A stretch of 64,000 bases of DNA from a virus. How positions within the stretch are numbered: position 1 is the stretch's first letter; each line of letters begins with the position of its first letter. The stretch lies in IMG/VR virus record IMGVR_UViG_3300034108_000503, positions 8,272-72,271 of that record, one strand, 5' to 3'. Below, piece by piece: positions 922 through 44,356 of this stretch. Below the pieces are notes generated by a model. That model searched no databases and was not told where the DNA came from. It was given only the letters and a program-made list of their open reading frames with translations. The translations under genes were made by a program, and so were the position numbers.

Positions 922-3900
922 ATGGAATCGATTGATGGAACTGGTCTTCCTTCCCAACCGCAGACGCAGCCGCAGGCTCCAAAGAAGTGGAGCGAGATTG
1001 AACAGGAGAGCCTGATCTACTCGCTTCCGCCTGAGCAGCGGATGCCGATCTTCGACCAGTGGGTCAAGGACACCCAGAACTATCAGCTTCAGGCTGGAGG
1101 ATTCGACAATCCGGAGTCCTTTCAGAAGTTCAAACTCAAGGAACTTCAGACCCGTCGCCGCCTCTCTTCCGAGATCGGTGCCGATCCGACTCCCGAGGAA
1201 GTCAATGCTGACTACGACAACTACGTCAACATCATCAGCAGCGAGCAGCAGAGGCTTGCTGCGAAGGCACCGGATGAGAAGGCGTACAAGGATGTCATCG
1301 ACGGAAACCGTGGCGCTGCCTTCGTGGGTGGTCAGATTGTATTCAATCCAAAGGTCACCAAGGATCCTACCGCTTATCGTAAAGCACTTGCAGAATCGGA
1401 TGCTCCTGATGACATCAAGCTGATCTACGCCGGGAAGCGTGACGAGGAGGACAAGAAGTCTGTCGTCACAAGACGCAATGAACTTGCATCAAGGGTCATC
1501 ACTCCGAAGGTTGCCGACAAGGTTGTCTCTGCAATCCAAGAAGGGAACGAGATCCTCGGCTTTGATGTCGGCACTCCTCAGTCACCTGCCATCGTCAAGG
1601 ACAAGGCTGGAACATGGTCTGTGGTTGATCCTGATTATGTGAACTGGGATGAATCCATTGTCGGTGGAATTGCCACCAAGGTTCTCCCTGCTGCCAATGC
1701 CCAGTACAAACCGATGCCGGAACTCAACGAGTTCCAGAAGAAGTACGGACTGACGGACGAAGAGATCCAGACCGACTACCTTGAAGCGCTCAAGCGAAGC
1801 GCACCGACATCCATTTCCCGCTGGGTCACCAATGCTGACTCGCTGGAGGACTACGTCCCCGTTCTCAACTCCAAAGTCAGGGTTCTTGATCCTGACGTAA
1901 AGCCGAAGGTCTTCGTGCCGAATGCGGATCTTGCCTTCGACAAGGAGGCTTACGATGCCGTCGTGGACAAGGCGAAGGCTCCGGATGAAGCAAAGGCTCT
2001 CGCCAAGGAAACCAGAACACAGATCGCTGAATCCATTGCGGCTCCGACATTCGACCTTCTCCTCCGCAACCGAGACGACTTTGCCCCGTATGCCAAGGAC
2101 GCAAAGGATCCCCAGGCGAAGGTCGCTGCTGTGTCCAGGTACTACAAGGACAAGAAGGATCAGGCGTGGTACAATGACATCGGTGAGTTCTTCAGCCAGG
2201 GCATCGGCGGAATCGGGACCGGACTGACCAGACTGGTGAATCTTGCGAACGTGGTGCCTGCAATGTTTGGAGACGTGGAAGCTGCTGAACGTGCTGCCGC
2301 AGTCCAGAAAGCCGAAAACGAAAAGGCGCAGGCCGCTGAGATGGTTGGCAGCAGGATGGGTGCGCCAACTACCATCAAGCTGACCCGTGACGTTGCTGCC
2401 GTCCTTCCGGATCTCGCGGCTCAGATTGTGATCTCGATGGCTACCGGAGGTCTCGGTGCTTCCGCTGCTGCCGGATCTCTTGCAGCCAGGACCGGGGTTT
2501 CATACACCGCTGCCCGTGGAGCGATCAGTGCTGCCATGGCAAACGCCGAACGAGGTGCCGTCAGGGCTGCGGTTTCAAGGATCCCCAGCATCGCCGCTGG
2601 TTCCGTGGATGATCTTGCTGACGCAGCGATTGCTACGGCAAAGCAGATGTCGTCGAAGAATCCTCTCAAGGGAGGACTTGGTCTTCAGCAGGCAGTTTCT
2701 GCCGCCACTGCCGGGATGAGCAGCATGGGAGGAACATTCCCCGAGGTGTACAGCCAGCTTCGGAATGAAGGCATGGCTCCAGCAAAAGCGCTGGATGCAG
2801 CAAGGAATGCTGCCGCAATCTCCGGTGCCATCACCGGGTTGATCACATACGGATTCTCTGCCGCTGGTGCTGGTGGTGCCGAAGACATTGGCACGATGAG
2901 CCAGCGCAAGGCCGGGGACTTTACTGTTCGCGACTTGGTTGCTGCCGGACTTCCTGATGTACTCAGATCTGAATACGGAAAGCAGGCAGTCATCAAAACT
3001 GCGAGGGGAATCCTCGGAAAGGCTGGATCGGAAGGATTGGAAGAAGGCCTTGATCAGTTCATCGGCGGAATTTCCCAGTACCTCACTAACCCGTCAGCAG
3101 AAGCGCAGGACAAAAAGGTTTCGGACATCATCCAGGAGTCGCTCTACGCTGGCGCACTTGGATTCATTGTCGGTGGTGGTGCTGCTGTCGGTGGACAGAT
3201 CAGGCAGACTGCCGGGGGTCTTACTGCCGCTCAGATTGAAGCGGAGATGGCTGGACTCACTGGTGCGCCACCCGCGCCACCTGCACCTGCAACGCCGCCG
3301 CCACCAGTTGCTCCTGCTGCCGCACCTCCTGCTGCTGGTTCAACTCCACCTGCGCCTGCCGCTCCCGGTGCTGCTGCCGTTCCGCCAAGCCCAGCGCCAC
3401 CACCAGCAGGTGCCGCCACTGTTGTCTCGCCAACCGGAACGACGACGGTATCCACTGCCGCGCCAAGTACCGTTGTGTCGGCTCAACCTCCGGGTGCAAC
3501 AAGGCTTGCCACTCGTCTCGCGTCTCAGTTTGGAGTGGACATCACAACCGTCACTCCGTCCGGGGCAAACAACACCGTCACGCCGAATGACATCCGTAAT
3601 GCTGCTCGGCAAAAGCAATTGGCAGAGGCAGAACAGAATGGCGTTGCGCCTCCTGAAGAACTTCCGCTTCCTCCACCTCCACCGAATCCGCTGCTCAGTG
3701 AAGCTGTCGGCATGCAGATTCAGTACGAAGGCTACGAAGGCACGCTGATTGATGACGAAGGCAGGCCCGCCTTGCAGACACCGGATGGAACGGTCATTGA
3801 CATTCCGGCCACGTTTCTTGCTGACGAGGCAGTGAATGCCCTCGGCATTACAGTCACCGGAGATGCAGCGCAGGATAGAGCAGAAGTGCTTCGCATGTAC

Positions 3901-6900
3901 GGCGAAACGGAAGGCGAGGCATTGCAGATTATCTTTGGCGGCATCACGACGGACACTGATTCCGTTGTCGATATGGCTGAACTCGGCGTCTCACTGCTGC
4001 AACGCAAGGGACGCAAGACAATCAGGGTGCAGAACACACCAGAGTTCGCACGCATGGCGAGGGGAATCACGGACGAACAGATCCTCCTTGCCGAAGAGCA
4101 GATCACTCAGGCAATTGAAACCACTAGAACCCAGACGGGAATCCCAGATGACCTCAAACAGAAAATCACAGCCAAACTTGAGGGAGACCTCAACATCCTC
4201 TCCCTCTTCATCGAGTCCCGCGACTCTTGGCAGAACGGACTCGTTCCTCGCGACATTGGCGTACCTTCGGAAACAAGGCAAGCCACAGCCGCAAGCCAAG
4301 CCCCAGCCCAGCAGACAAACCCCGCCGCAGTAAACGCAGCGTCAGTTGCTGCTGCCGTATCACAAGTTCCCGGCGCATCAATCACTGGTGCCGCGCTCCA
4401 ACAGGCAGCGAATACTGCTCCTCCGGTTCCTGTTGAGGTACCTCCTGCTCCTGCTCAACAGCCAGTTGAAGCTGCTCCCGCTGCGACACCTGCCGCCCCG
4501 ACCGTGGTCGAAGAGCCTGCTGCGGAAGCGAAGGCAGTCACCCGCGATGCGACGAAGCCGGAACAGATGACGAAAGATGAACTTTCGGCATTCAGAAAAT
4601 CTGAGGCAATAAAAACAGCTAAAGATGATCTTTCAAAAGCAAAAGACGGAACAGATAATCCGTATGCGTTTGGATTCAAAAGCAAAGCGGCGCTAGTAAG
4701 GGCAAGAGAAGATGCTTTACAAAAAGCAACATCGGAAGATCAAGACCCTGATGTTTTCGGAACTGTCATTGAGGCGGCAAATCAAAAGCGCCCAATATTT
4801 GCCGGATTGATTGACTCTCTGAGTGATGTAGACCGGACAATTTCTCCCGGTCCAATGGGAGAACCAGGCGGTGTTGTGCGATCTGCAAGGAAGCAATTGA
4901 TCGACAGTATTGAAGAAAAAGGATACGTCAAAGAAGGTGACCTGTATGTTTTCAAAGGAGAAAGCGAAACCGCTTCCGTAAAAGCAACAGAAGAGCCTGC
5001 CGTGGAAGCTCCGGTTGAAGCGACCGTGGAAACCAAACCAACAGAAGCACCAGTCGCTCCGGTTGAAGCTGCTACTGAACCTGTAGTCGAGCCTGCCGCT
5101 CCGAAGGAAGAAGCCCCAGCCACTGCCCCGAAGGCAGAGGCACCAGTCGAAGAGCCGAAGGCGGCGGTTGATATTGAGTTCGTAGAGGGAGACGCAGCGG
5201 AAGACGCTGATATTGTCTTTATGGTTTACAGCGCAAATAACTATTACACCCTTTGGTTCAAGCAGAAATCCAAGGACAAGACAGCAAGACCAGTTTATGT
5301 AAAGAACCTACCATCAAACGAGAAGGATGCTTTCTCTGAAGCAAAGCAATACGCATCAAAAATTGCATCAACAGGCAAAATTCCGCAGGCTTTTGTCGGG
5401 AAAATTGATGTATACAAATTCAATACTGTCGGTCTCATCGACAAAGTTGTTGAAAGAGAAAAGCTCTCAACTCCAGTTTCACGGAATCTTGGTGATTCAG
5501 AAATCAGGTACGGCGAGTACGCTGGCAAAACAATCAATCAACTTTTGTCCGGCGAAGAAAAGGAATTCGATTACGTTTTTTCCAATCTGATCAAAACCAA
5601 CTTCTTTTCCAGCTACATTGCATCTCTGCCTGAGTTTGAGATCTTCAAGCAGAAACAAAAAGAGAAAGCCAAGCAAGTAGTCACAAGCGAAAGCAAGGCG
5701 GCTCTCAAAAAAGTTGGATTGAATGTATCAATCAACGAGGAAAGCGGGGAGATTCAGATCTCAGGCAAGACATTCGCATGGAGAGAAAAGCTCTCTTCCG
5801 TAAAAGGAAAATTCAACTATGAAGACAAATTCTACTCAGTCACCCCAGAAGGATACAGACAACTTGCAGAAGAGATTGGAGGAATTAAGGTTTCTGATGG
5901 CGGATACGAGCGAGGCATCCCGGCTTATGTCACAGATGAAAGATATCGAAGACTTCGCAGAGAACGAGAACAGGATCCTGACAGAAGCGGACTACCTTCC
6001 GCTCCTGGACAGTATGTCTCGGTAGGAACACAAGATCTTCTCCGCAAAGGAGAGGAGTCCGGAATGCCTTCGTTTGTTATTGAGGAACAGATTGAAGATG
6101 TTGCCTTGATCAAAAGGGCATACACCGAAGGCAAACCTTTGTTCCTTCTTTCAAGCGAGCCGGGTTCAGGAAAAACCTACGTTCTTGGTGCAGCGATCAG
6201 GGAATTGATTGCCGCTGGCGCAAAGAAGATCAATTACATTACTCTTAACGAAAACCTGATTGAGCAAATCAAAGCGGATCTTGCTGAGTATGGAATTCAG
6301 GATGTTTCGTTCTACACATACGACAGCATCAAAAAGAAAGATGTTGGCGAAAGTGATGTTTTGATTTTTGATGAAGGTCACGCAATCAAGAATATCGGGA
6401 AAGGAACCGGGAGGGCAAAGAAAGGCGAGAACTTGATTCGCAGATCAAAGTTCACATTGGTTTCTTCCGCTACGCCATTTGAGAACCCGCTTGAGGTGGA
6501 GTATCTTGATGCGGCAGGTGTCTTTGATGACAAGAACGAATTCCCGGAGGGGTTTGATGACTTCGTCTTGGCTTTTGGTGGATACGTTTTTTCAGTGACT
6601 GACTCAAGAGGAAACACGGTAAGTAAACTGGAGTTTGCAAGAAGCAAAGGATCAAACGAGGATCTCATGCAGGCCCGCGAGTTCTTCAGAAAGCGAGGAA
6701 TGCTTACTACAAGAAGAACCAAGCTCGACAGCAGCATGGTTGATGTTCAGCAAAAGAAAGTCCCTGCCGACAAATATTACGTTGATATTTTCAACGCCAT
6801 CAACAAAGCCAAGGAAGACAAACAACTTACCGTTTACGCGAGGCAGTGGTTCGTCAACTTCCAGAAACGACTTCTTGAAGCGTCAAAGATTGACTCTGCG

Positions 6901-9900
6901 ATAGGTGAGGCGAGGAACGCAATCGACGAAGGAAGATACCCAATCATTTTTGTAGAAACGAAACAAGCAAAGGATTTCGATATCGACAAACTCGTAAAAG
7001 ATGAGTTTGAGTACCAAAGGACAGTCGCAAGAGCGAAGATGATGGATGACTCCCCTCCTCCTCGTTCAGCATTTGATCTTCCTCCTGAAGGTGTTGTTGA
7101 TGTTTTTGAAGAGGCAGTAAAGTCCTTCAAGATCAAGAATATTTCAATTCCTTCAATCAACGACAAGATCATATCGGCTTTTGGGAAGGAAACTGTTGCG
7201 TTCTTTACTGGAGATTTCACGGACCTTCAGGCGAAGAAGAATCTTTCCGAGTGGAGGAAGGGAACCAAGAAGCTGCTCGTCGCCACAATGGCAAAGGGTG
7301 GAACTGGTCTCTCATTGCATGACAAATCCGGTGATCATCCAACAACGCAGATCAATGTAAATCTTCCATGGTCGGCAACTCAATTCACACAGGTGGCCCA
7401 AAGATCCGCTAGGTACGGATTGAGATCGAAAGCCAAAATGATGTGGCTTTTCACCGACGAGATCGATTTCGACAGGAAGCTCGCAAATCTTGTTGGTGGA
7501 AGAATTCAAAGCATGAGCGCTTTGGTTGGCGGAAAAGAAAGCAAGATCGGAGAGACTCTTGAAGAGTGGAATATTGCAGACACGACTGACTCTGAGCGCA
7601 AGGACGTTAAGCCGACAGAGAAGCCAGCAGAGACAGCAGATGGATCGCCGGATCCAAATGCCACCGATGATCTGAGTGTTTCGCGAAGCACTGGTCTTCC
7701 GTACACTCCCGGAGAAGCACGCAAGGCAGGTGTCACCCGAATCGCCAGCGACCTTGGGTTGGTCAACGGGAACCAGGAATCTGTCTTCAGCGCTCTGGAG
7801 AAGATCTCTAAGTCCGGCAACCGCAGGCACAGGAAGGTAGCCAAGGATCTGCTCAAGGTTCTGCAAGGCACTGATGTGACCGTCCAGATGATCTCAGTGG
7901 ATCCATCCAAGAACGGATGGTTCGACCCGGCAACCGGAACGGTCTACCTCAACCTCGATGGGCCGCATGAAACTGGCATCGTCGAGACGCTGCTGCATGA
8001 ACTGGTTCACGCCGGAACCGAGAGGGCAATCAGCAATCCGGTCACCCCGGCGCAGAAAGCATTGGTGGATTCGCTCCAGAAGCAGATGGATTCCGCAAGG
8101 AAGGCGGCAGCGGATCTGATCAAGTCCAAGCTAGGCAAGGACGTGGATCTGACCAACTGGCGAGGACTGGTCAATGCGGCGAGGATGCTCAATGACTACG
8201 ACTTCTTCGACGTGGTCTACGGTCTCTCCAGCCTGAGCGAGTTCGCAACCCATGCGACCACCAGCAAGGCGTTCCAGAAGTTCCTGAGCGGAGTCGGCAA
8301 GGATGGCAAACCGCTGGGTCTGTTTGATCGCTTTGTCCGTGTGATTGCCAAGTACTTCACCGGGCAAACAGACATTGCCACTGATGTCTACAACGACATC
8401 ATCAGCCTCATTGGATCTGCCGACAAGGGATCGGTGCGGATGCCGAACATCAACCGTGAGAAGTTTGGCGGGTTGGTTGGAAAGCCTGCGTCCGAATCCA
8501 GAGGTGTCACTCCTCAGATGGATGCGGAGTATATGTCCGCCGTTGAAGGCGGCGACACCAAGACCGCACAGAGATTGGTGGATCAGGCTGCGAAGGCGGC
8601 TGGGTATAATGGTGATCTTTGGCATGGAACAAAATCTGAAAAAATAGGTGAGCTTTCCTTTGATGAATCAAATGAAGGATTTCATATCGGAACCAAAAAG
8701 GCCGCCGCAGAAAGACTGAAGTACATAAATAAAACGCTTCCAGAAATGCGGCAGTCTAAGGATAACCTAATCAAAGTTTCAATAAAAGGAAACTACTTGA
8801 CTGTTCCTGATGTCGGATACGGATATCTTGTTGACTGGATTGGAGCCGCTCAGGATGCGTTGCCAGTTGAAGGCCAGGAGATTGATGATCCATTCGATGT
8901 TACGCAGGAGCAATTCACTGAGTGGCTCATGAAGAATGGGTACTCTGGGTTGAGATATGTAAACGAAATAGAAAATGCAGGAAGTACTAGTTATGCTGTA
9001 TTTGATTTTGGTAGCGTGAAATCAACTGAGCCGATCATTAAGGACGACGCTGGTAACGTCATCCCGCTCTCCCAGCGCTTCAATCCTCAGTCTCCAGATA
9101 TTCGCTTCTCCGAATCCAGAGGCATCATTGACCAGCAGCTTGCGCTCTACGCTCCGGACCTCAAGGTCTTCGTCGAGCCTGGGGTCAAAGATCCGATTGC
9201 GTACAATGGCATCGGCCTTGTGATCAACGAGGAAGCGGTCAGCGAGATGGACGAAGACGACGTGCGCCTCCAGACCCAGCGTGCCGCTCTTGCGTCGAGG
9301 TTTGCCGCTGACAACCCGCTGGCTGCGGATGTGATCCAGAAGCCTGACCTGCTGTTCCCTGCGCTCATGGGTGATTCTGTGCGTGCTGGAGTGGCGAGAT
9401 CGCTGATGGATGCCAGTCGCTTTGCTGCCGACAATGGGATGCAGCCTCTTGCGATGGATCTTGGGACCAAGGCTGATGCCTTTGGAGCCACCGGGATCAT
9501 GCTGTCCGAGGCGAGAGGAGTGCCACCTGATGGAGTCAGAAGGTTTGATCTTGTGGATGCTGTCCGCGCAGCAAAGGCTGGCGAAGCGTCCACTCCATTT
9601 GTTGCCCTGAACGAGGCGATCAACGCAAACACCGAACTCACGCGACGGATCAGGGCTGAGAGTGAGCGGAGGAAAGCACCATACGCCAGAGGCAAAGGAG
9701 CGATCCTCCAGCAGATCATCACAGCAGGTAATTCCGGGCGTCTTCCAAAAGAGGCAATCAAGCCAATCACCGACTTTGTGAACTCGGTATCGGAGAAGGC
9801 TCTGGAGGATACGAGAATCTCACTGTCCGTAAAGCCAAAGAGCAGCACATTCGATTTCACGGAGTCCCTTGTGACTTTGGCTCTGAACGGTCTCGGTTCT

Positions 9901-12900
9901 TCTCCGAATGAGATTGACCGGACTGCTGTTCATGAATTCTGGCATGGTCTCTCCCGCTTTATTCCCGATGAGGAAATCGAGAAGATGCGCGTTGATTACG
10001 TCAAGTTCGTCAAGAAATACATCGCCAAGAATCCGTGGTTCGTTCCGTTCATTGGAAGGACGCACTTGAATGAGGATCAGTACGACGATTTCTCCAGGAT
10101 GCTGTCCAAAGAGGAGATGGACTCAATCCCGTGGAAAGAATGGGAGACTCTTGATAACGGGAAGCGGGTGCGCGGAATCAAGTGGGACAAGGAGAACTAC
10201 CGTCTCTTCCGCCTTGATGAGTGGGTGGTTGAAACCATGGCGGATCTGGTGCGCCGAAAGCAGGAAAGACCAACGACTGTCCTTGGTAAGATGGCTCGCC
10301 TGATCCGGGACTTCATTGACACGCTGAAGCAGGCTCTCGGTGATCCGTACCTGCGTGCGCTGGATGCGATGACCATTCCGGACGAGGCGTTCAATGCCGT
10401 TATCGAAAGGGATGGTCCAATTGAAAACAATCCTCCCGTGATGTACGGAGGCGTAGCCGAAGGGATGAACAATCAGTTCGTCCTCGGAATGTACGCTGGC
10501 GAGAAGTCGCTGGAGAATATGCCAGAAGAACGCAGGGCGTTCATGCAGGATTCCCTGAATTCAGCAAGAGCAATGGCTGCGGCTGGCAAGACAAGCGAGG
10601 AGATCCGTGCTGTGACCGGATGGTTCCCCGGAAAGTACGACGGCAAGATGCGGTGGGAAGTGCCGGATAATGAAGCGGAACTTAGGCTTTCTGAATACAG
10701 ACAGAAAAGAAAGGACGGAAGCTCACAGGAGGATATTGTCCGTGAATTTTTTCAGGCAAAACAGCAATCCGCAATGGAGCTTGCATTAAAAAAAGCATAC
10801 AATCTTAAAGGCAAAGACTTGATTGATTTTAGCCGTAGGTTTGATTCTGAAAAGAAAAAAGAAAATCTCGGGGTTTATTCGTTTTATCTAAATGAGGAGA
10901 ATAGAAGCCGAGGAAGAATTCCTCTCAGCTATATTCTTAAGCATGATCAATTGTTTGATCTGTACCCAGAACTTAGGTTTATGCCAGTGTCGTTTAATGC
11001 AGACGACATGGAGGCAAGTCCATTTGCCATTGGCGCATTCAACAGTAGTTTTAATGGAATTTCACTAAATCCAATATATGCTTTTGAAAATGAACAGGAT
11101 GCTTTATCGACTGTTCTACATGAAATTCAGCACGCAATTCAAAAAACGGAGGATTTCGCAAAAGGAGCATCTCCGGATTCATATTTGTTTGCTGATGTTG
11201 CATATAAGGATTGGCTTCTCAGGGCAGAGCTTGTCCAGCTTTCAGATGAAATGAACAAGCCGCTATCTGAGGCTGTTGAAATGTATAAACCATTCCCTCA
11301 AGATTACGAATCATTGCAATCAGCACTCAAGGCTTATAATTCAGATAATGATTTCAAGGATTCCGTTTCAGTAAATATTAAATACTGGAAACCAAGGGGT
11401 TCTGTAAACATGTTTGATGCGTACACAAACACCGCAGGCGAAATCGAAGCCCGTGATGTTCAGGCAAGGCAAGCATTGACACCCGAGCAGCGTGCCGCTG
11501 TTGCACCATACAGCAGCGAGAACATCGCTCCGGAAGATGCGATTGTCAGCTACTCAACCGCCAGAGGCTACACCCCGGCACCCGGCACATATGTTGCGGT
11601 CCCATCCAGCGGATGGATGGCGGCGACCGGATGGATTGCGTCGAAGTTCAGATCCAGAGGCAACCTCACTCAGGCTGGGCTTGAGGTCACGATCATGAAC
11701 GAGCAGGAGAAGAAGGCGGCAGCAAACGCGGCACGCTTCCTTGGCAATAATCTCGGCAAGCAGATTGAGAAGGTCTTCGGAAGGACCGAGAAGGACACCA
11801 AGAACTTCCGGGTGTTCACGACTGATGCCAGCGGCAAGCCCTCGTTTACCAGACCGTATGCGTCTCGGGCCGAGGCCGATGCCTTTGCTGCGAAGATGGG
11901 GTACACCGACTTCATGGTAGCCACCCCGGAGGAACTGATGAACATCGCCCTCGGGAACAGCATGCCGTCGCTGACTCCGAAGCAGGAGGAGGAGCTTGAA
12001 GCTATTCGCGAGCGCGGGATTGCTGCCGTTCAGGCGAAGACCGACAAGCTCACCGAGCAGTACCTCCGCGATAACGCTGCCCTGATTGAGAAGATTCGCA
12101 AGTCCGGCGGAACTGCTGCGGAACTCGACAAGCTCAAGGACAATCGTGAGATCTTCCAGAAGGAGATGCTCAAGTACAACGATTCCCTGAAGGCTCTCTT
12201 TGAGGAAAAGTACAAGGAAGTGAACCGCAAGTTCATGCTGGAGAACAAGGAGAAGTTCCTTTCGCTTCAGGCGAACGCCAAGATGTTCCTGCCGGATTCC
12301 ATCCTCAATGAAATCGAAGAAGCCAGGGCGGCTATCGACGGCAGGTCCAGGGAGATTGCCGGGATCGACTACCTGATGAAGGACGGCATGATGCGGATCG
12401 TGTTCTCAGCACAGGAGGGAATCTACGTCACCCGTGCATACGAGGCGTTTGAGGCGAAGAATCGTGAGGACTACGTTAACTTCCTGAACGAAGCGTACCG
12501 CTCCACGGTCGAAGGCGAGATGGTTGGCGGTAAACCGCTGAAGTACCGCGAGGTTGCGCGTGAGCGGATCACTCCGCTGGTGAACGTCCTCACCGGGAAG
12601 ATCATTGAGAAGCGGGCAAAGGACATCATTGCGGAGCAGAATGCTGACATGGTCAGCGATCTCCGTGATGAGATGAGGATCATGGATGAGAAGTCCATGT
12701 ACAAGAAGGACAGGAAGGACAAGGAGATGGACATGTACTTGTACCTGAGCGACGAGTACATTCTGGTCAGGGCAAAGAATGAAGTGAAGCGCAGGCGGGC
12801 GCAGTACCGCAGGGAGTTCATCCGAGGGATTGCCAACTACCTCGTCAGTAATCCCGCCCTTCTCAGCCTTCCTGCTGGTGCAGGGAAGAAGGAGATCCGT

Positions 12901-15645
12901 GCTGCTGCCATGAAGATGGGGCGGGATGCCTACAATGACCCTGATTCGTTTGATAAACTGATCACCGACTCCGCAATCGACCGGATCAAGCTGCTGAAGT
13001 ACAAGCTGATGCCGCTGGGTGATGCGCTCATTCAGGCTCAGAATGAATACCAGATTGCCGAGAAACTCCGGAGGGCTGGCAAGCCGGACACATCTGGAAT
13101 CAAATGGCGCACGTCCATCGGGAACAATCAGAAGCAGAGCTTCATTGAAGCGCTCAACTCGGACTTCCAGAAGAACCTGGACTTCATCCTCGGTGCGCCA
13201 GTCAGCGGATCCGGCGGCAAGGGAGTAGCCGATAGCTGGCAGAAGCTGAACGATGAGATCCTGATGCATCGCGACAACATTCCGGCGTACATGCGGAAGT
13301 TTTGGGGAGAGACTGAGTCTCCGATTCAGCGGATCACCCAGACGATCACGAAGCAGGCATCGCTGATTGCCGACTCGGTGTTCCGCGAAAGGATCGCCAG
13401 CCTCGGACTGGAAGAGGGGTGGGCCGTGAAGAAGGAGGACTACGACAGTAACCCAAACAAGTACCCAGGCTACAAGCGAATCATCGAGGGCGACGAAGGC
13501 TACGAGGACAATCCTCTGGCTGACCTCTACGTTGACGGCAACATCTACAACTCGCTGGAGATCCGCAGGTCCGGCAATCAACCATCCAACGATGCATTCA
13601 AGTTCATCGGATACTGGGTTGGTGCTGCTCTCTGGAATGCGACATCCGGTTTGATGCGTGGTGCTGTCCGGAACCTTGCGTCCTTCCCGGCATGGGGAAT
13701 GAACTCTGGTCAGAACCTTGCCAACCCGATCACCATGGCGCGTGTGATGTCCAACTTCGGTATCGCATCCGGAGCAATCGCTGAACACCTTGCCACCGTG
13801 CCAAGAGTGAAGGGTGGAACCGAAGGCGAATTTGTCGGTTTGAGGTGGAGCAAGAACCTGATCGGCACTGCGCTTCAGGCATACTCATTCACTGGTCCTG
13901 GGTCGAAGATCTTCGGAGGAATCTCCGGTATCCTCGGATCAATCTCCAATGTGACTGGCAGGGCGGAAAAGGAATCAGACCGCAAGGCGTTCCAGGATCT
14001 GTACACCAGGGCAGTCAATGTCGGTGTTGCTGACAACAACATTGAACGGAACGACATGGCAAGACTCCTCGGGTACGAGGACGAACTCACCCGCAGACCA
14101 ATCACTGGAGGCAAACTTGCCCGCTTCCTGCCATCGTGGATGCGCCCTGATGACATGCAGGGTGCATTGGATTACCTCGTACAGACAGCCAAGTCCACGG
14201 CAGGGAACCGTACCGAGTACTACTCATCGATGGACTCGCTGACCAAGATCACGTTCTGGCTCAGTGAGATGGAGGAGCAGGCGAAGATCCACGCCAAGGA
14301 CAAGGCTCAGTTCAATGAGTGGCGCGGAGAGAACGGCATGTTCCAGAACCTTCCGAAGGAGCTTCAGATCAAGGCCGCGAACAACATCAATGACACCATC
14401 CAGTCTGACTCTCGGGTTCTGGAAGGCGTGAACCAGTTCCGTAAAGCCGGATGGGGTAAGATCCTCTCTCCGTTCCTTGCGTCGAAGACCGAATTCATCC
14501 GCACTGCCCAGAATTCCTACCGGATTGCGCTGGATGAAATGAAGAACGGTGTGAACAAGAAGGAGAAAGCCAGGGGCGCAAGGCGTCTGGTTGCTGCGCT
14601 GACTGGTCACATCGGATACTCTGCTGTCGCATCGTTCCTTGCGGTCACCGTCATGCGGATGGTTGGTGGCGGGGACGATGAGGAGAAGGAAGGCGTGACG
14701 CTCGACGGTTCGCAGATTGATTCGCTCCGGAAACTGCTGCCAGAGTGGGCGCAGAATAAGGTGCTGGCTGGACGAGCATACGCCAATGGCGAGATCGACT
14801 GGGCTGACGTTTCCTTCCAGCTTCCGTTTGGATGGATGAACGAAATCTTCATCTCCGGACAGAAGGCAATCGACAAGAGCAACGCGGAAGACATCCTCGC
14901 TGCCGAGGTCACGATGCAGATCGTGTCTGACTTCATCGGCAACTTTGCCTCCAGGCAGATTGCAGTTGAGGCTGCATCCAATGCTCTTTCTGGCTTCGAC
15001 CGGATCCGGAACAAGACGATCTGGGAAAAGGACGACAGTGTCTACGTCAAGATCGCTAAGGGGATCAAGTACTACTTGAATTCCGCAGGGTATCCCGGTG
15101 ACGTTCGTGATGCCATCAAGATGTACAAGGCTGCATACGGGATCGAGGAGAATGGCAGCAAGTACAAGATGGATGCAGTCCTCCTGTCCATGCTCACTGG
15201 TCAGAGCATCCGCACCCAGAAGATCGACGAGATGTACCTCTCTCAGATGCGGCAAGCCCAGGATGATCTGCGTATCGTGAACCGATCCCTCTACCAGTCG
15301 GCTCTCCGGGATGCCAACAACGTGGAGCCTGAAGATGTCGCAGCCGACACGAAACTCGCCATGACCCGCCACGCCGAAACCATGCGTGAACTCGGGCAGA
15401 TGTTCTCCTCGGCAACAAGCCTGCTGGAGACTGGCGGCATGGCTCCAATGGATGCCAGAAAGAAGATCCTTGCGATCATGCGAAGCGAGAAGGTCAAACT
15501 CAGCCAGCGTGATGAGCGGGCAATCGCCAACCAGTACATCCCGCCATGGCGAGGATCAGATGTCACCGAGAGGGAAATCCGCAGGCTCGACCGCAAGCAT
15601 AACGACGGTCGCTTTGAGGCTTACCTTGACGCGATCCGCAGGTAA
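922..15645 (+). CDS. Giant 4907-aa polyvalent virion/ejection protein (DarB-like architecture): PSBD-like domain, SF2 helicase, zincin peptidases, ART-like domain, LPD23
   Basis: Walker A SSEPGSGKT (~6151-6177), DEGH (~6370), SATP, ATMAKGGTGLSLHD and QRSARYG helicase motifs; HELVH (7996), HEFWH (9931), HEIQH (11119); DAEYMSAVEGGD...WHGT...VIPLSQRFNPQSPDIRFS ART-associated module; EEIRAVTGWFPGKYDGKMRWEVPD (LPD23-like); Gly/Ala-rich hydrophobic N-terminal helices. Confidence 0.85.
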   Translation: MESIDGTGLPSQPQTQPQAPKKWSEIEQESLIYSLPPEQRMPIFDQWVKDTQNYQLQAGGFDNPESFQKFKLKELQTRRRLSSEIGADPTPEEVNADYDNYVNIISSEQQRLAAKAPDEKAYKDVIDGNRGAAFVGGQIVFNPKVTKDPTAYRKALAESDAPDDIKLIYAGKRDEEDKKSVVTRRNELASRVITPKVADKVVSAIQEGNEILGFDVGTPQSPAIVKDKAGTWSVVDPDYVNWDESIVGGIATKVLPAANAQYKPMPELNEFQKKYGLTDEEIQTDYLEALKRSAPTSISRWVTNADSLEDYVPVLNSKVRVLDPDVKPKVFVPNADLAFDKEAYDAVVDKAKAPDEAKALAKETRTQIAESIAAPTFDLLLRNRDDFAPYAKDAKDPQAKVAAVSRYYKDKKDQAWYNDIGEFFSQGIGGIGTGLTRLVNLANVVPAMFGDVEAAERAAAVQKAENEKAQAAEMVGSRMGAPTTIKLTRDVAAVLPDLAAQIVISMATGGLGASAAAGSLAARTGVSYTAARGAISAAMANAERGAVRAAVSRIPSIAAGSVDDLADAAIATAKQMSSKNPLKGGLGLQQAVSAATAGMSSMGGTFPEVYSQLRNEGMAPAKALDAARNAAAISGAITGLITYGFSAAGAGGAEDIGTMSQRKAGDFTVRDLVAAGLPDVLRSEYGKQAVIKTARGILGKAGSEGLEEGLDQFIGGISQYLTNPSAEAQDKKVSDIIQESLYAGALGFIVGGGAAVGGQIRQTAGGLTAAQIEAEMAGLTGAPPAPPAPATPPPPVAPAAAPPAAGSTPPAPAAPGAAAVPPSPAPPPAGAATVVSPTGTTTVSTAAPSTVVSAQPPGATRLATRLASQFGVDITTVTPSGANNTVTPNDIRNAARQKQLAEAEQNGVAPPEELPLPPPPPNPLLSEAVGMQIQYEGYEGTLIDDEGRPALQTPDGTVIDIPATFLADEAVNALGITVTGDAAQDRAEVLRMYGETEGEALQIIFGGITTDTDSVVDMAELGVSLLQRKGRKTIRVQNTPEFARMARGITDEQILLAEEQITQAIETTRTQTGIPDDLKQKITAKLEGDLNILSLFIESRDSWQNGLVPRDIGVPSETRQATAASQAPAQQTNPAAVNAASVAAAVSQVPGASITGAALQQAANTAPPVPVEVPPAPAQQPVEAAPAATPAAPTVVEEPAAEAKAVTRDATKPEQMTKDELSAFRKSEAIKTAKDDLSKAKDGTDNPYAFGFKSKAALVRAREDALQKATSEDQDPDVFGTVIEAANQKRPIFAGLIDSLSDVDRTISPGPMGEPGGVVRSARKQLIDSIEEKGYVKEGDLYVFKGESETASVKATEEPAVEAPVEATVETKPTEAPVAPVEAATEPVVEPAAPKEEAPATAPKAEAPVEEPKAAVDIEFVEGDAAEDADIVFMVYSANNYYTLWFKQKSKDKTARPVYVKNLPSNEKDAFSEAKQYASKIASTGKIPQAFVGKIDVYKFNTVGLIDKVVEREKLSTPVSRNLGDSEIRYGEYAGKTINQLLSGEEKEFDYVFSNLIKTNFFSSYIASLPEFEIFKQKQKEKAKQVVTSESKAALKKVGLNVSINEESGEIQISGKTFAWREKLSSVKGKFNYEDKFYSVTPEGYRQLAEEIGGIKVSDGGYERGIPAYVTDERYRRLRREREQDPDRSGLPSAPGQYVSVGTQDLLRKGEESGMPSFVIEEQIEDVALIKRAYTEGKPLFLLSSEPGSGKTYVLGAAIRELIAAGAKKINYITLNENLIEQIKADLAEYGIQDVSFYTYDSIKKKDVGESDVLIFDEGHAIKNIGKGTGRAKKGENLIRRSKFTLVSSATPFENPLEVEYLDAAGVFDDKNEFPEGFDDFVLAFGGYVFSVTDSRGNTVSKLEFARSKGSNEDLMQAREFFRKRGMLTTRRTKLDSSMVDVQQKKVPADKYYVDIFNAINKAKEDKQLTVYARQWFVNFQKRLLEASKIDSAIGEARNAIDEGRYPIIFVETKQAKDFDIDKLVKDEFEYQRTVARAKMMDDSPPPRSAFDLPPEGVVDVFEEAVKSFKIKNISIPSINDKIISAFGKETVAFFTGDFTDLQAKKNLSEWRKGTKKLLVATMAKGGTGLSLHDKSGDHPTTQINVNLPWSATQFTQVAQRSARYGLRSKAKMMWLFTDEIDFDRKLANLVGGRIQSMSALVGGKESKIGETLEEWNIADTTDSERKDVKPTEKPAETADGSPDPNATDDLSVSRSTGLPYTPGEARKAGVTRIASDLGLVNGNQESVFSALEKISKSGNRRHRKVAKDLLKVLQGTDVTVQMISVDPSKNGWFDPATGTVYLNLDGPHETGIVETLLHELVHAGTERAISNPVTPAQKALVDSLQKQMDSARKAAADLIKSKLGKDVDLTNWRGLVNAARMLNDYDFFDVVYGLSSLSEFATHATTSKAFQKFLSGVGKDGKPLGLFDRFVRVIAKYFTGQTDIATDVYNDIISLIGSADKGSVRMPNINREKFGGLVGKPASESRGVTPQMDAEYMSAVEGGDTKTAQRLVDQAAKAAGYNGDLWHGTKSEKIGELSFDESNEGFHIGTKKAAAERLKYINKTLPEMRQSKDNLIKVSIKGNYLTVPDVGYGYLVDWIGAAQDALPVEGQEIDDPFDVTQEQFTEWLMKNGYSGLRYVNEIENAGSTSYAVFDFGSVKSTEPIIKDDAGNVIPLSQRFNPQSPDIRFSESRGIIDQQLALYAPDLKVFVEPGVKDPIAYNGIGLVINEEAVSEMDEDDVRLQTQRAALASRFAADNPLAADVIQKPDLLFPALMGDSVRAGVARSLMDASRFAADNGMQPLAMDLGTKADAFGATGIMLSEARGVPPDGVRRFDLVDAVRAAKAGEASTPFVALNEAINANTELTRRIRAESERRKAPYARGKGAILQQIITAGNSGRLPKEAIKPITDFVNSVSEKALEDTRISLSVKPKSSTFDFTESLVTLALNGLGSSPNEIDRTAVHEFWHGLSRFIPDEEIEKMRVDYVKFVKKYIAKNPWFVPFIGRTHLNEDQYDDFSRMLSKEEMDSIPWKEWETLDNGKRVRGIKWDKENYRLFRLDEWVVETMADLVRRKQERPTTVLGKMARLIRDFIDTLKQALGDPYLRALDAMTIPDEAFNAVIERDGPIENNPPVMYGGVAEGMNNQFVLGMYAGEKSLENMPEERRAFMQDSLNSARAMAAAGKTSEEIRAVTGWFPGKYDGKMRWEVPDNEAELRLSEYRQKRKDGSSQEDIVREFFQAKQQSAMELALKKAYNLKGKDLIDFSRRFDSEKKKENLGVYSFYLNEENRSRGRIPLSYILKHDQLFDLYPELRFMPVSFNADDMEASPFAIGAFNSSFNGISLNPIYAFENEQDALSTVLHEIQHAIQKTEDFAKGASPDSYLFADVAYKDWLLRAELVQLSDEMNKPLSEAVEMYKPFPQDYESLQSALKAYNSDNDFKDSVSVNIKYWKPRGSVNMFDAYTNTAGEIEARDVQARQALTPEQRAAVAPYSSENIAPEDAIVSYSTARGYTPAPGTYVAVPSSGWMAATGWIASKFRSRGNLTQAGLEVTIMNEQEKKAAANAARFLGNNLGKQIEKVFGRTEKDTKNFRVFTTDASGKPSFTRPYASRAEADAFAAKMGYTDFMVATPEELMNIALGNSMPSLTPKQEEELEAIRERGIAAVQAKTDKLTEQYLRDNAALIEKIRKSGGTAAELDKLKDNREIFQKEMLKYNDSLKALFEEKYKEVNRKFMLENKEKFLSLQANAKMFLPDSILNEIEEARAAIDGRSREIAGIDYLMKDGMMRIVFSAQEGIYVTRAYEAFEAKNREDYVNFLNEAYRSTVEGEMVGGKPLKYREVARERITPLVNVLTGKIIEKRAKDIIAEQNADMVSDLRDEMRIMDEKSMYKKDRKDKEMDMYLYLSDEYILVRAKNEVKRRRAQYRREFIRGIANYLVSNPALLSLPAGAGKKEIRAAAMKMGRDAYNDPDSFDKLITDSAIDRIKLLKYKLMPLGDALIQAQNEYQIAEKLRRAGKPDTSGIKWRTSIGNNQKQSFIEALNSDFQKNLDFILGAPVSGSGGKGVADSWQKLNDEILMHRDNIPAYMRKFWGETESPIQRITQTITKQASLIADSVFRERIASLGLEEGWAVKKEDYDSNPNKYPGYKRIIEGDEGYEDNPLADLYVDGNIYNSLEIRRSGNQPSNDAFKFIGYWVGAALWNATSGLMRGAVRNLASFPAWGMNSGQNLANPITMARVMSNFGIASGAIAEHLATVPRVKGGTEGEFVGLRWSKNLIGTALQAYSFTGPGSKIFGGISGILGSISNVTGRAEKESDRKAFQDLYTRAVNVGVADNNIERNDMARLLGYEDELTRRPITGGKLARFLPSWMRPDDMQGALDYLVQTAKSTAGNRTEYYSSMDSLTKITFWLSEMEEQAKIHAKDKAQFNEWRGENGMFQNLPKELQIKAANNINDTIQSDSRVLEGVNQFRKAGWGKILSPFLASKTEFIRTAQNSYRIALDEMKNGVNKKEKARGARRLVAALTGHIGYSAVASFLAVTVMRMVGGGDDEEKEGVTLDGSQIDSLRKLLPEWAQNKVLAGRAYANGEIDWADVSFQLPFGWMNEIFISGQKAIDKSNAEDILAAEVTMQIVSDFIGNFASRQIAVEAASNALSGFDRIRNKTIWEKDDSVYVKIAKGIKYYLNSAGYPGDVRDAIKMYKAAYGIEENGSKYKMDAVLLSMLTGQSIRTQKIDEMYLSQMRQAQDDLRIVNRSLYQSALRDANNVEPEDVAADTKLAMTRHAETMRELGQMFSSATSLLETGGMAPMDARKKILAIMRSEKVKLSQRDERAIANQYIPPWRGSDVTEREIRRLDRKHNDGRFEAYLDAIRR
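8491..9122 (+). repeat. Exact 14-bp direct repeat TCCGAATCCAGAGG (8491-8504, 9109-9122) flanking the ART-like domain
   Basis: Read directly; both copies encode SESRG in frame. Confidence 0.85.
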
Positions 15646-18379: not shown

Positions 18380-19729
18380 CTATTTGCGCCATGCCTTCTG
18401 GGGTTTCTCCTGCTTCCTCCTTGGCGGATCGTCGTCATCCTCGAAACGCTGGAGCGCACCATTCCGGCGGACTGCAACGCTGCGGTTGGATGCACCGAAG
18501 CGGTTCTTGAGGATCTTTATCCTCCCGGTATCGGCAGTCTCCTCGTTTCCGTCCTCGCTTTCGTGGACATCCATGTCGATCCGAAGGAACACCTGCGGAG
18601 CATCAAGGATTGCCCTCGCGTCACGGATCATGCCGTCGTCATTCAGTTGGACCGGAGCGATGAGCGTGCATCCCAGTTCCTTCCGCAACCTCTCTGCCGT
18701 CTCGGAGATTGTCTTGAGCATCTGATCCGCCCGCTCGCCGGAACGCTGGGCAACAGGCACAAGCTGAAGGTAGTCGATCACAATGAAGTCCAAGGGCTTC
18801 TTTCGGTGGAGGTTCCTGGCGTGGGAAGCAACGCCTTCCAGCGAGATGTACGGTGATTCGGTGTAGTGCAGATCCCATCTTCCGAGGGACTCAATGGCTT
18901 TCTGGATTCTGGTGAAGTCACCCTGTTCCCGCAGCGGGGTGCGGCCCATCACCTTGTCGAGAGGGATACCCGACTCCCGTGCCAGATCCCGCATCACGAT
19001 CTGGATTGCTGACATCTCGTAGCCAACCACGAACCCGCGCCTTCCAGCGCACGATAGTCTGCCAGCCATCTGCATCGCCAGCAGAGTCTTCCCGTGTCCC
19101 TGCTTTCCTCCGATCAGGATGTACTCCCGACGGATCCCTCCAGCCAGCAATTCGTCCAGTCCTTTGATCCCGGTCGCGATGGCAGGATCAACGTCAGTCT
19201 CCACTCCCTGCTCGATGATGTCGATGTAGCGAAAGAGGACATCCTTGATTGGAATCAGGTTCGCGCTCCTGCTCTGGACGGTGGCGGTATCCAGTTCCCG
19301 GATCATTACTCCAACCTTTTCTCTCCAGTCATCCGGCCCATCGTAGGCGACAGCCTCCAGCCGGGACGCTATCTTTGCAACGCTACGGCGTCTGGATGCG
19401 CTCCTGACGGCTTCGCAGTATGATCGTACCGCAGACGGCGCAGACGCTGCTGTGGCGATTTCCGAGATGGTTCCCGCGCCCCCCACGGAATCCAGCTTCT
19501 GAGCGTCAATCAGGTGGGCCGTAAGCGAGACAGCATCCACCGGGTTTCCGTCAGCGTGGCGGGAGATGATCAGGTCGAACAGGTAGGCGCAGTGTCCGGT
19601 GACGAAGTCCGAGGACTTGATGATCTCAATCGCCTGGTCGATGGCGTACTCCGGTGCCTGCATCAGGCAGGAGATGACTGCTCTGTCCATTTCCTCCGAC
19701 CCCGGAGGCTTCTTCAGTTCATGGTTCAT
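18380..19729 (-). CDS. dnaB: Replicative DnaB-like helicase
   Basis: N-terminal PPGSEEMDRAVISCLM...VDAVSL domain; TGIKGLDELLAGG; Walker A GGKQGHGKT; YEMS; VIDYLQL; KNRFG. Confidence 0.9.
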   Translation of the reverse strand: MNHELKKPPGSEEMDRAVISCLMQAPEYAIDQAIEIIKSSDFVTGHCAYLFDLIISRHADGNPVDAVSLTAHLIDAQKLDSVGGAGTISEIATAASAPSAVRSYCEAVRSASRRRSVAKIASRLEAVAYDGPDDWREKVGVMIRELDTATVQSRSANLIPIKDVLFRYIDIIEQGVETDVDPAIATGIKGLDELLAGGIRREYILIGGKQGHGKTLLAMQMAGRLSCAGRRGFVVGYEMSAIQIVMRDLARESGIPLDKVMGRTPLREQGDFTRIQKAIESLGRWDLHYTESPYISLEGVASHARNLHRKKPLDFIVIDYLQLVPVAQRSGERADQMLKTISETAERLRKELGCTLIAPVQLNDDGMIRDARAILDAPQVFLRIDMDVHESEDGNEETADTGRIKILKNRFGASNRSVAVRRNGALQRFEDDDDPPRRKQEKPQKAWRK

Positions 19730-23495: not shown

Positions 23496-24290
23496 TCAGT
23501 CCTTCCACTTCGGCCATAGGAGGTTCTCAGGAGCGGCAGGATATCCCGGCCATACGCCTGTCTCGGTGCATTGCTTGTGCAGATCAATGATCTTGTCCAT
23601 CTGCCGCTGCCCCTCCTCAATTGCCTCATCAGGGAAGACGTATGGCTTCACTAGATACGGCTTGGCTGACTCAACCGCCAGCAGCATGTAGACTGGTTCC
23701 TCCTCCAGTCCTTCAGCCAGAGAGACTGCCTGCGTGTACCACTGACGCTGGATGTGATATCCCAGCTTCCGGCACTTCCGGGAAAACTCAGTAGGCGATG
23801 CGTCACCCGTGGTCTTCAGGTCGATGATCATCCTTCGGCCTTGGGAATCATATCCCAGCATGTCCGGCAAAGCCTTGATTGGAACGCCACGGTACTCAGT
23901 CAGCACCGGAGTCTCGCGAACCGGGCAGAGTTGCATGACAGCCTGGAAGATCGGATCATCCTCCAGTGCCAGCCTCATGCCCATCACGTTGTCGTATTCC
24001 TCTTGGGAGAAGATCGGCAGAGTCTGTGCTGCCGTCCATTCCTTGCACCACTTCTTGGATCCATGCCATGCGTCTGCGGGGTCATCCTCCCGATGCGCTG
24101 GCTTGATTGCAAAGTCCCTGCTGATGCCTTGCAGCAGATCGTGGACTGCGGTTCCCATGCGGATGGCAATGGAGTCCAGTTCCTCTGGTTCCTCCTTCGC
24201 CTGCTGGAAATGCGCAGGGGTCTTGAATGCCAGCAACTTCGCGAGGCTGAAGTTCAGGGCGGGATGCGCCCGGTATTCATCAATTGTCAT
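23496..24290 (-). CDS. PD-(D/E)XK exonuclease, RecE/ExoVIII (DUF3799)-like
   Basis: EYRAHPALNFS, MGTAVH, KALPD, IIDLKTT, GYHIQ..WY, WPGY. Confidence 0.85.
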   Translation of the reverse strand: MTIDEYRAHPALNFSLAKLLAFKTPAHFQQAKEEPEELDSIAIRMGTAVHDLLQGISRDFAIKPAHREDDPADAWHGSKKWCKEWTAAQTLPIFSQEEYDNVMGMRLALEDDPIFQAVMQLCPVRETPVLTEYRGVPIKALPDMLGYDSQGRRMIIDLKTTGDASPTEFSRKCRKLGYHIQRQWYTQAVSLAEGLEEEPVYMLLAVESAKPYLVKPYVFPDEAIEEGQRQMDKIIDLHKQCTETGVWPGYPAAPENLLWPKWKD

Positions 24291-32181: not shown

Positions 32182-32940
32182 TCAGACTCTGATCACAAAC
32201 CCGCTTTTATCCGCTTTCGCTTTTCCTTTTGTCAGCAACCCGAACACCGTGCCGCCTGGTCGCAGAAACGTCAGGTCTTCCTTGTCGCCATCGATGACCG
32301 GACAACCCGCCCAACGCTCCGGGAGGCGCGGAGCAAAAACCGCAGCGACGCATCCCCCTGATTGCAGGAATGAACGGGAGAGCCTGTCACTCTCGGGCGT
32401 CTCAGAGCGTGACCAGGTCAGATGGTAATTCGCCGGAAAATCCCCGATGAGAAAACGGCTCATCCGGCCTTTTACTTTTGTGTAGTCGTAAAACTGAACG
32501 CCCTTAAACCGTTCCGGCAGCGTCTCACCGTTTGCCGTTTTGATTGATTCCCAGGATTGATCGCTTGTCAGATTCAAGCGGATGGCGGGGCGGAGGCGGT
32601 GACGGTCTGCGAGCCTAAGAAACGCCTCTAGTTCCCTCACCAGTTGATCCATGAATTGCGCTCTGTCTCGAAGGAAATAGAGCGTTCTGGCAAGGCGTGC
32701 TATTTGCACCTGAGGAAACGCACCATGCCCGGCAGTGACCAAGCAGACTTCCCGGCAACCCTCAGACGACCCAGGGCAGACGTTTTTCCCTGACAGGCTA
32801 GCCGGGGAAAAATGAATTCCAGTGGTAATCCATCCGACAGCATGCCCCTTTTCTAGTTTTGGGTTGTTCGCAGTGAGTATGGCGCGGAGTTGCGCCTTAT
32901 AGGCAGCGTAAGCGGCTTCGATTTCTTGAGAGAATTTCAT
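32182..32940 (-). CDS. GP88-like / radical-SAM-like Cys-cluster protein
   Basis: NVCPGSSEGCREVCL (CX6CX3C), IRLNLTSD, QFYDYTK, NYHLTWSRSE, IDGDKEDLTF. Confidence 0.65.
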   Translation of the reverse strand: MKFSQEIEAAYAAYKAQLRAILTANNPKLEKGHAVGWITTGIHFSPASLSGKNVCPGSSEGCREVCLVTAGHGAFPQVQIARLARTLYFLRDRAQFMDQLVRELEAFLRLADRHRLRPAIRLNLTSDQSWESIKTANGETLPERFKGVQFYDYTKVKGRMSRFLIGDFPANYHLTWSRSETPESDRLSRSFLQSGGCVAAVFAPRLPERWAGCPVIDGDKEDLTFLRPGGTVFGLLTKGKAKADKSGFVIRV

Positions 32941-43873: not shown

Positions 43874-44356
43874 TTAGGAAGTGAAGTGACGGGACCAGAA
43901 TGCGTCATCCGTCCTCATGATGATTTCACGGCTCGGGAACTTGTCTTCAATCTCAGGAAAGAACGCATCCGTGTAATTTACGTCGTAATTCAGCATCGTC
44001 AGGTACAGTTCGTCGAGATTTGATTCAAGCAGCGTCCAGATCTCCACACCTCCGATCACCCAGATGCTGCCTGGGTATTCCGGCTTATCAATGGCAGTGA
44101 GCGCAGAAAGCTCATCCATGTCTCTCGCAATCTCAATCCCGTCGCACGGCTTCATCGTTCTGCTCATCACGATGTTCCTCCTGCCTTTCAGAACGGACGG
44201 TAGAGATTCCCAGGTCTTCCGGCCCATGATGACGGTTCCCCCCATGGTCATCCTCCTGAAGAACCTGAGGTCTTCCGGTAGATACCAAGGGATGGTTCCG
44301 TTCAGTCCGACTGCCCGGTTCTGCGCCATGGCGGCGATTCCAATCCACTTCTTCAT
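43874..44356 (-). CDS. folA: Dihydrofolate reductase
   Basis: IAAMAQNRAVG.NGTIPWYLPEDLRFFR, VIMGRKTWES, GRRNIVMS, VIGG, DAFFP. Confidence 0.95.
   Translation of the reverse strand: MKKWIGIAAMAQNRAVGLNGTIPWYLPEDLRFFRRMTMGGTVIMGRKTWESLPSVLKGRRNIVMSRTMKPCDGIEIARDMDELSALTAIDKPEYPGSIWVIGGVEIWTLLESNLDELYLTMLNYDVNYTDAFFPEIEDKFPSREIIMRTDDAFWSRHFTS

Follow-up and report, generated by a model that had tools for sequence, protein, structure and literature searches.

The peripheral subunit-binding domain (PSBD) of E2 and E3BP docks E1 and E3 in the 2-oxoacid dehydrogenase complexes. To our knowledge, descriptions of it are almost confined to its role in holding together the pyruvate, 2-oxoglutarate and branched-chain dehydrogenase complexes, and a search of the literature found no paper linking PSBDs or E3-binding domains with phage proteins. 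A second class of described systems is relevant here, the polyvalent proteins, in which several unrelated effector or large polyvalent protein associated domains (LPDs) are joined in a single very large polypeptide encoded by a phage or a conjugative element. The window that we analysed is 64,000 nucleotides of phage DNA, bases 8272–72271 of the 72,271-base virus record IMGVR_UViG_3300034108_000503, which is rated 100% complete by CheckV. It contains a giant open reading frame, P0001 (4907 amino acids, 922..15645, + strand, as are all features of P0001 given below), a phage polyvalent protein with LPD23 and ResIII matches. Within P0001, residues 856–905 (3487..3636) make up a PSBD-fold module. 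On profile matches and structure prediction together we regard this fold identification as solid, the module being best described as a true, divergent homologue of the E2/E3BP PSBD. As judged from its sequence, a single PSBD in a phage polyvalent protein is a new context for this known domain.

An earlier, sequence-only reading of this DNA had pointed to a PSBD-like string of 33 residues, which we located at nucleotides 3496–3594, in frame +1, as residues 859–891 of P0001. The long Ala/Pro linker that it described ahead of the string is also present, residues 773–838 being at least 60% Ala plus Pro in 20-residue windows. A search with the Pfam profile PF02817 (E3_binding; 36 positions, curated cut-off 23.7 bits), the check proposed by that reading, placed the excised segment above the cut-off at both lengths scored: its 47-aa version reached 27.6 bits (E 3.5e-6) and its 146-aa version 25.1 bits. 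The match runs without gaps over profile positions 6–36, and PF02817 was the only Pfam family found on the excised segment at E ≤ 10. When all six frames of the whole 72,271-base record were searched, exactly one match to PF02817 was obtained, the module itself (26 bits, E 1.1e-6). We also built a profile from 120 PSBD domains; as these were picked by their likeness to the module, this control is biased in its favour. With it, the module reached 46.4 bits, and the runner-up among 1256 pieces obtained from the six frames of the window (97,899 residues) had 5.2 bits; none of 2000 shuffles exceeded 10.0 bits, compared with 56.9 for the excised module.

Sequence searches started from the module led to the same family. 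With phmmer, ten PDB sequences matched at E ≤ 10; nine of these are E2 PSBDs, the best at E 0.009, and the other is an alpha/beta-hydrolase entry. The reciprocal phmmer search (66 residues against 1.84 billion representatives) returned 59 proteins at E ≤ 0.001, two of which belong to the phage's own family. Among the remaining 57, 54 carry E3_binding, E2 catalytic domains occur in 26 and lipoyl domains likewise in 26; the other three (P0008, P0009 and P0026) are Thr-rich repeat proteins and false hits. All 57 have at least two matched stretches, and because a lone PSBD cannot reach E ≤ 0.001 in such a library, this sample over-represents multi-PSBD proteins. The closest single domains share 20/38 and 19/38 residues with the module, and both belong to E2-type chains. 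Of 30 feature matches in the ESM Atlas, 19 were E3_binding clusters, with a top score of 0.91. No second PSBD copy was found in P0001 or in its relatives P0002–P0004, and a PHROG search gave no family at a convincing E-value for the module or for nine non-E2 PSBD proteins. A word-indexed search of shorter proteins retained none of 517 candidates at E ≤ 10, and nothing was found among named phages by megablast with the whole gene or by tblastn with its first 1500 aa. At E ≤ 10, tblastn with the 47-aa module gave six weak matches in six phage records. Two of them (H4 and H6) were rejected, being on the strand opposite the annotated gene. Three (H1, H2 and H3) are Arthrobacter-phage portal matches, of which H1 has no Pfam family at E ≤ 0.01, and the sixth (H5) falls in an unannotated record.

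The two-helix PSBD fold expected by the sequence-only reading was also predicted by AlphaFold2, with a mean predicted local distance difference test score (pLDDT) of 77, rising to 86–88 in the core. In the model, helices at 861–870 and 888–905 are joined by a loop with two short 3-10 turns. PSBDs head both of the structure searches made with this model. In the Foldseek search of the PDB, all 25 rows listed to rank 28 were PSBD, E2 or E3BP entries, and the rows from crystal structures superposed with a root-mean-square deviation (rmsd) of 0.8–1.4 Å over 35–50 columns. In a VIA-align search of 48,161 representative chains, all eight chains at Z ≥ 5 were PSBDs, as were the top nine rows (Z 4.6–6.4, rmsd 1.1–2.2 Å), with nearly the whole target covered.

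How is the module set in the giant protein? It follows a first linker (residues 773–855, 3238..3486), Ala/Pro-rich and then Thr/Ser/Val-rich up to 855, and is followed by a second one, Pro-rich in sequence (residues 906–925, 3637..3696). The PSBD segment, some 50 residues long, thus stands out as a separate bead flanked by two flexible linkers. Next comes a conserved region (residues 926–1100, 3697..4221), found together with the module in every one of P0002, P0003 and P0004. This region has no Pfam or PHROG match, and the AlphaFold2 model of residues 920–1110 (mean pLDDT 51) was too low in confidence to be of use.

The module is present in five close relatives: P0002 (4809 aa) and P0003 (4459 aa), which are full-length giants, P0004 (4255 aa), which starts inside the module, and the viral contigs L002 and L003, whose records G001 and G002 match PF02817 at 26 bits. 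Comparison of P0001 with P0003, the most distant carrier, indicates how well the module is kept. It is 86% identical (37/43), equal to the best-kept part of the N-terminal domain (77–86%), while the linkers are 69–70% identical and changed in length (13 gap columns in linker 1; 70% identity in linker 2) and region 926–1100 is down to 57%. Between P0001 and L002, codon differences in the module are four synonymous and one non-synonymous, the latter outside the core, and those in residues 401–778 are 44 synonymous and eight non-synonymous; the module's differences are in line with purifying selection, as far as so small a sample of codons can indicate. Linker 1 of L002 carries an expanded (AP)n run (L002:4100–4460), so linker length differs even among near-identical relatives. 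In L003 the reading frame is lost within the (AP)n repeat of linker 1, probably through an assembly error in a simple repeat. In two farther relatives (L004/L008 and L009), 48% identical in the N-terminal domain, the corresponding position also holds a Pro-rich linker, but the sequence beyond it is a different one. With relatives that have the linker and lack the module, the module is a clade-specific insert in a pre-existing flexible arm.

We then aligned the module without gaps to 120 PSBD domains taken from the phmmer matches and compared it with them residue by residue. The residues of the fold core are those of the family: A863 is common to 102/120 PSBDs, the helix-1 Ala A867 to 119, G871 to 104, V872 to 68, D873 to 109, G881 (the Gly of the G-x-G loop) to 117 and D890, the Asp at the start of helix 2, to all 120. 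The surface is different. At column 864 the phage has Thr, a residue seen there in none of the 120 domains (R/K in 97); at 868 it has Ser (1/120; the column is otherwise mixed), at 884 Asn (5/120; Gly in 110) and at 885 Thr (11/120; Arg in 60). Column 861 is Arg (3/120) in place of the usual Pro (75/120), and 888 is Pro, found in none of the 120 in a mixed column. The basic helix-1 and loop G-R gripping feature of PSBDs is therefore lacking in the module, and R865, the helix-1 Arg (R in 72/120), is the only basic gripping residue left. The sequence-only reading had noted the replacement of the Arg of this G-R pair by Thr, and this is right (T885); the preceding Gly has changed as well (N884). 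In the printed HMMER alignment with the PSBD from Thermus that was crystallised with E3 (2eq8_C), R-R-L-A-R and G-R stand opposite T-R-L-A-S and N-T. The net charge of the module core is +2, against a mean of −0.6 in the 120 PSBDs.

Do these changes affect binding? In the Geobacillus stearothermophilus PSBD, Arg135, Arg139 and Arg156 form salt bridges to E3 and E1, and we take these three residues to align with three of the columns changed in the module. We found no open paper that states the E3/E1-gripping arginines of this PSBD. Our link of columns 864, 868, 884 and 885 to binding comes in part from this background and in part from a study of eukaryotic E2 and E3BP PSBDs (PMC10156792), according to which an Arg is universally kept next to the conserved Gly, on one of its two sides. 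In the phage module Asn takes the place of that Gly, and there is no Arg on either side of it. Since the fold core is kept and the basic E3/E1-gripping residues are replaced, the partner or the mode of gripping has probably changed.

What may the module do? We favour, with a probability of roughly 55%, a role as a tethered docking knob, a true PSBD homologue that would hold a protein partner near a string of effector modules with a specificity unlike that of E2 PSBDs. The module would sit on a flexible Pro/Ala arm of a polyvalent protein that is itself such an effector string, and this string would travel in the virion and enter the cell alongside the DNA. Like other PSBDs, the module would be a tiny, independently folding docking knob, and its tether would keep the partner, either a host protein or a second protein of the phage, within reach of the remainder of P0001. 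The sequence-only reading allowed for a change of binding partner, and this is the interpretation that the sequence leads us to prefer. Because the module lies outside an E2 chain and lacks the basic gripping residues, we make no claim of binding to E3 or E1.

Several points weigh against the docking-knob reading. The PF02817 score drops beneath the cut-off in longer sequence, being 22.4 bits when 540 aa are scored and 18.8 bits (E 0.0019) for the whole protein, so the match is borderline and context-dependent. The 120-domain sample is biased, as it was drawn from proteins with at least two PSBD stretches. The AlphaFold2 model rests on an alignment of three rows and may echo solved PSBDs that the program has learned; Foldseek E-values are weak (best 0.015, none ≤ 0.001), and, for a small helical model, a VIA-align Z of about 6 is moderate. 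Seven of the 120 PSBDs, in E2-like or multi-PSBD proteins, have no basic residue at 864, 868 and 885, so that loss of these residues alone is no proof of a changed partner. Finally, the records of L004/L008 and L009, fragments rated 45% and 73% complete, contain no PF02817 match at E ≤ 0.1; absent from these 48% identical relatives, the module is dispensable for the basic role of the protein and could be a passenger.

A canonical alternative is that the module binds the host E3 (dihydrolipoamide dehydrogenase) dimer or E1 at the usual two-fold-axis site, thereby anchoring the injected protein to the 2-oxoacid dehydrogenase complexes or competing with E2 for E3/E1 and disturbing central metabolism. 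Docking onto E3/E1 is the sole known function of the PSBD fold, the closest relatives of the module are PSBDs of E2-type chains (45–53% identical), its linker-PSBD-linker layout is the same as in E2, and the helix-1 Arg R865 is retained. Moreover, E3 dimerisation, E1-beta C-terminal, lipoyl (PF00364) and E2 catalytic (PF00198) domains each had no match at E ≤ 0.1 in the whole record, so a partner of the canonical kind could come only from the host. The sequence-only reading had proposed exactly such a tethering or sequestering of host E3. As far as the sequence tells, this idea is weakened, because more than one Arg has changed (columns 864, 868, 884 and 885): the gripping positions are T864, S868 and N884-T885, with a Thr at 864 that no other PSBD of the sample shares and no Arg beside the conserved-Gly position. 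We therefore hold canonical mimicry to be unlikely. When residues 855–899 (alignment of three rows) were modelled with two copies of Escherichia coli Lpd as a stand-in, the predicted complex scored 0.00, which speaks neither for nor against binding. That the knob of the injected protein latches onto host E3/E1 dimers through a non-electrostatic variant of the interface also seems doubtful to us. If it did, the effector string could be parked on the largest metabolic complexes of the cell, or E3/E1 could be stripped from these complexes and the flux through acetyl-CoA and the TCA (tricarboxylic acid) cycle throttled at the start of infection.

Alternatively, the module might have no partner at all and act as a small, fast-folding and stable knot, a spacer in the arm or something that helps the protein to refold once it has passed through the tail. 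Its absence from the 48% identical relatives, whose arm bears other sequence, the changes at surface positions that bind partners in E2, and PDB titles that call PSBDs ultrafast folders all agree with such a bead. In P0003, however, R861, S868, Q869, F870, P879, N883, N884, T885, P888 and N889 are all identical, even though region 926–1100 is down to 57% identity. Although the sample is small, this retention of the phage-specific surface argues against a spacer, because a mere spacer should tolerate surface change, and we judge a passive role to be quite improbable. Could the module be a DNA-binding helix-extended-helix motif (SAP, Rho-N or LEM-like) that merely resembles a PSBD? Rare Rho-N/SAP domains of this kind are listed in polyvalent proteins in the main text of PMC5512222, and the core charge of +2 is unlike the PSBD mean of −0.6. 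Nevertheless, no SAP, Rho_N, HeH or LEM family was found in Pfam at E ≤ 10 (a search in which HMMER filters drop many weak matches), and no SAP, LEM or Rho-N entry appears among the 50 rows of the Foldseek list or of the VIA-align list, where PSBDs hold the top ranks; a DNA-binding motif is thus very unlikely. That a short Thr/Ala-rich stretch resembles a 36-position profile by chance is close to refuted. The profile is indeed short, the score falls under the cut-off in long context, and the three Thr-rich repeat proteins among the 57 outside matches indicate that composition can imitate part of the signal. These points are outweighed by E-values of 1.1e-6 to 3.5e-6 in independent settings, by the gap between 56.9 bits and the 10.0 bits of the best shuffle, by the match to all invariant core positions of the family and by a confidently predicted fold.

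Is the docking knob likely to reach the cell? The P0001 gene closes a block of rightward genes, among them those for terminase, tail spike and virion structural proteins, and beyond it lie leftward replication genes for DnaB, a PD-(D/E)XK nuclease and ThyA. A C-terminal stretch of P0001 (13255..13740) matches PHROG 22602, "virion structural protein" (E 3.6e-8, 32 bits; E 1e-5 in a second search). From the gene position and this profile match, P0001 is probably a packaged component of the virion that is delivered into the cell together with the DNA. The sequence-only reading had called P0001 a virion protein; this label is plausible from the gene position and the one weak PHROG match, and packaging itself we infer.

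The remaining features of P0001 are those of an effector string. A SNF2/ResIII-type helicase module occupies residues ~1722–2166 (6085..7419), with Pfam scores of 28.3 and 33.5 bits for ResIII (cut-off 22.5), 27.0 for AAA_34 and 21.8 for Helicase_C, and further matches to phrog_16 and phrog_62, DNA helicase. LPD23 (large polyvalent protein associated domain 23) lies at residues 3191–3254 (10492..10683) and scores 44.4 and 47.2 bits against a cut-off of 27. Three HExxH motifs were found. One, at residue 2359 (7996..8010), falls in a putative metallopeptidase region like DUF6782 (20.9 bits, under the cut-off); another is at residue 3004 (9931..9945); and that at residue 3400 (11119..11133) comes with a weak SprT-like match (14.9 bits, also under the cut-off). 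Around the motif at 2359, residues ~2298–2451 (7816–8277) match PHROG 2206, "virion RNA polymerase" (E 3.6e-8, profile positions 2036–2192 of 3406). The giant-protein family behind this PHROG probably shares the peptidase-like module with P0001, and it is unlikely that the match marks P0001 as a polymerase. Only two stretches of P0001 reach a Kyte-Doolittle value of 1.4 over 19 residues, 491–520 (2392–2481) and 4557–4582 (14590–14667). Both are hydrophobic and Gly/Ala-rich and lie within the conserved N- and C-terminal parts. They could be membrane-active pieces of an ejection protein; as evidence for a membrane anchor we set them aside as too weak.

Comparison with P0002–P0004 indicates that the N-terminal (~790 aa) and C-terminal parts of P0001 are kept and that its middle is variable. 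The middle third (residues ~1100–3100) is rebuilt in each of P0001–P0004, and the N- and C-terminal thirds are ~80–99% identical. P0003 and P0004 bear a helicase of a different type from that of P0001, and ART-PolyVal (PF18760) and extra modules occur in the middle, PF18760 being listed for P0002 and P0004 in the precomputed Pfam column. As read from these sequences, the modules in the middle of this polyvalent protein have clearly been shuffled among P0001–P0004.

Elsewhere in the window, the leftward early region (− strand) encodes ThyA (44353–45165; a match of 376 bits), a DUF3799/PD-(D/E)XK nuclease (23496–24290), a GP88-family protein (32182–32940) and a DnaB-like helicase (18380–19729). 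The phage ThyA is 52–60% identical to ThyA of many phyla and is uninformative on the host. No tRNA genes were found in the window, and an alignment of the N-terminal domain of P0001 found no relative among 185,579 species genomes. The record opens with 876 bases that are 92.5% identical to window 62733–63608, at the 3′ end of a gene for a 1080-aa virion protein near the other end of the record. At the protein level the likeness is 97% over 292 aa and it ends at the stop codon; the segment is either a second fibre-like gene with a common C-terminal domain or the wrap-around of a mixed-strain assembly.

The workings of this class of giant phage proteins are almost wholly inferred. A conserved PSBD copy, predicted to fold well, on the flexible arm of a polyvalent protein would mean that viruses, too, use the domain as a portable docking module. 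Should the partner prove to be host E3 or E1, the phage would have a novel means of taking over central metabolism, or of crippling it, at the very onset of infection. With any other partner, these ~50 residues would offer a tractable handle on the interactions of giant phage proteins.

How does the module compare with the described systems? It is like the PSBD of E2/E3BP in size (~40–50 residues), in its gapless match to profile positions 6–36, in its invariant core residues, in its predicted two-helix fold (rmsd ~1 Å to solved PSBDs) and in its Pro/Ala-rich flanking linkers. It differs in lying outside an E2 chain, at residue 856 of a 4907-aa phage protein, and in having T, S and N-T at the basic gripping positions. 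An E2 chain runs from lipoyl domain through PSBD to catalytic core; P0001 and the record have no lipoyl or 2-oxoacid_dh domain. As in the polyvalent proteins described by Iyer et al. (2017), in the main text of PMC5512222, P0001 is a giant with LPD23, SNF2-type helicase and zincin-like HExxH modules, several unrelated effector and LPD domains being combined in one polypeptide, and modules are shuffled among close relatives, including PF18760 in P0002 and P0004. The record that bears it also has a terminase, a tail spike and DnaB. The terms "E3-binding", "PSBD", "dehydrogenase" and "lipoamide" do not occur in that main text, and a PSBD module is thus not among the domains described there.

A third comparison is with non-E2 proteins that bear PSBD repeats and in which, as in the phage, the PSBD appears as a mobile module outside E2. 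Only 26 of the 54 E3_binding-bearing matches have an E2 catalytic domain, although some of the others may be fragments, and one also carries Ribosomal_L20; these non-E2 proteins and the Ribosomal_L20 match agree with the view of the PSBD as a mobile module. Among them, P0005, P0006 and P0010 are coiled-coil proteins with three or four PSBDs, and P0011, P0025, P0030 and P0059 are small, with two PSBDs each. P0005, P0006 and P0010 have a conserved, coiled-coil-like N-terminal region of ~100 aa followed by PSBDs split by long (A/G/Q)-rich repeats, and P0005 has no E2 catalytic or lipoyl domain. P0011 has a highly acidic Ser/Asp/Glu tail and P0030 a CxxC...CxxC zinc-ribbon-like start; the two PSBD copies of both have a P-[ST]-G-K-N-[ND] loop that recalls the phage P-S-G-A-N-N. 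None of these proteins is close to the phage module (≤53% identity). They are small and repeat the domain, in contrast to the phage, where a single copy is embedded in a giant protein.

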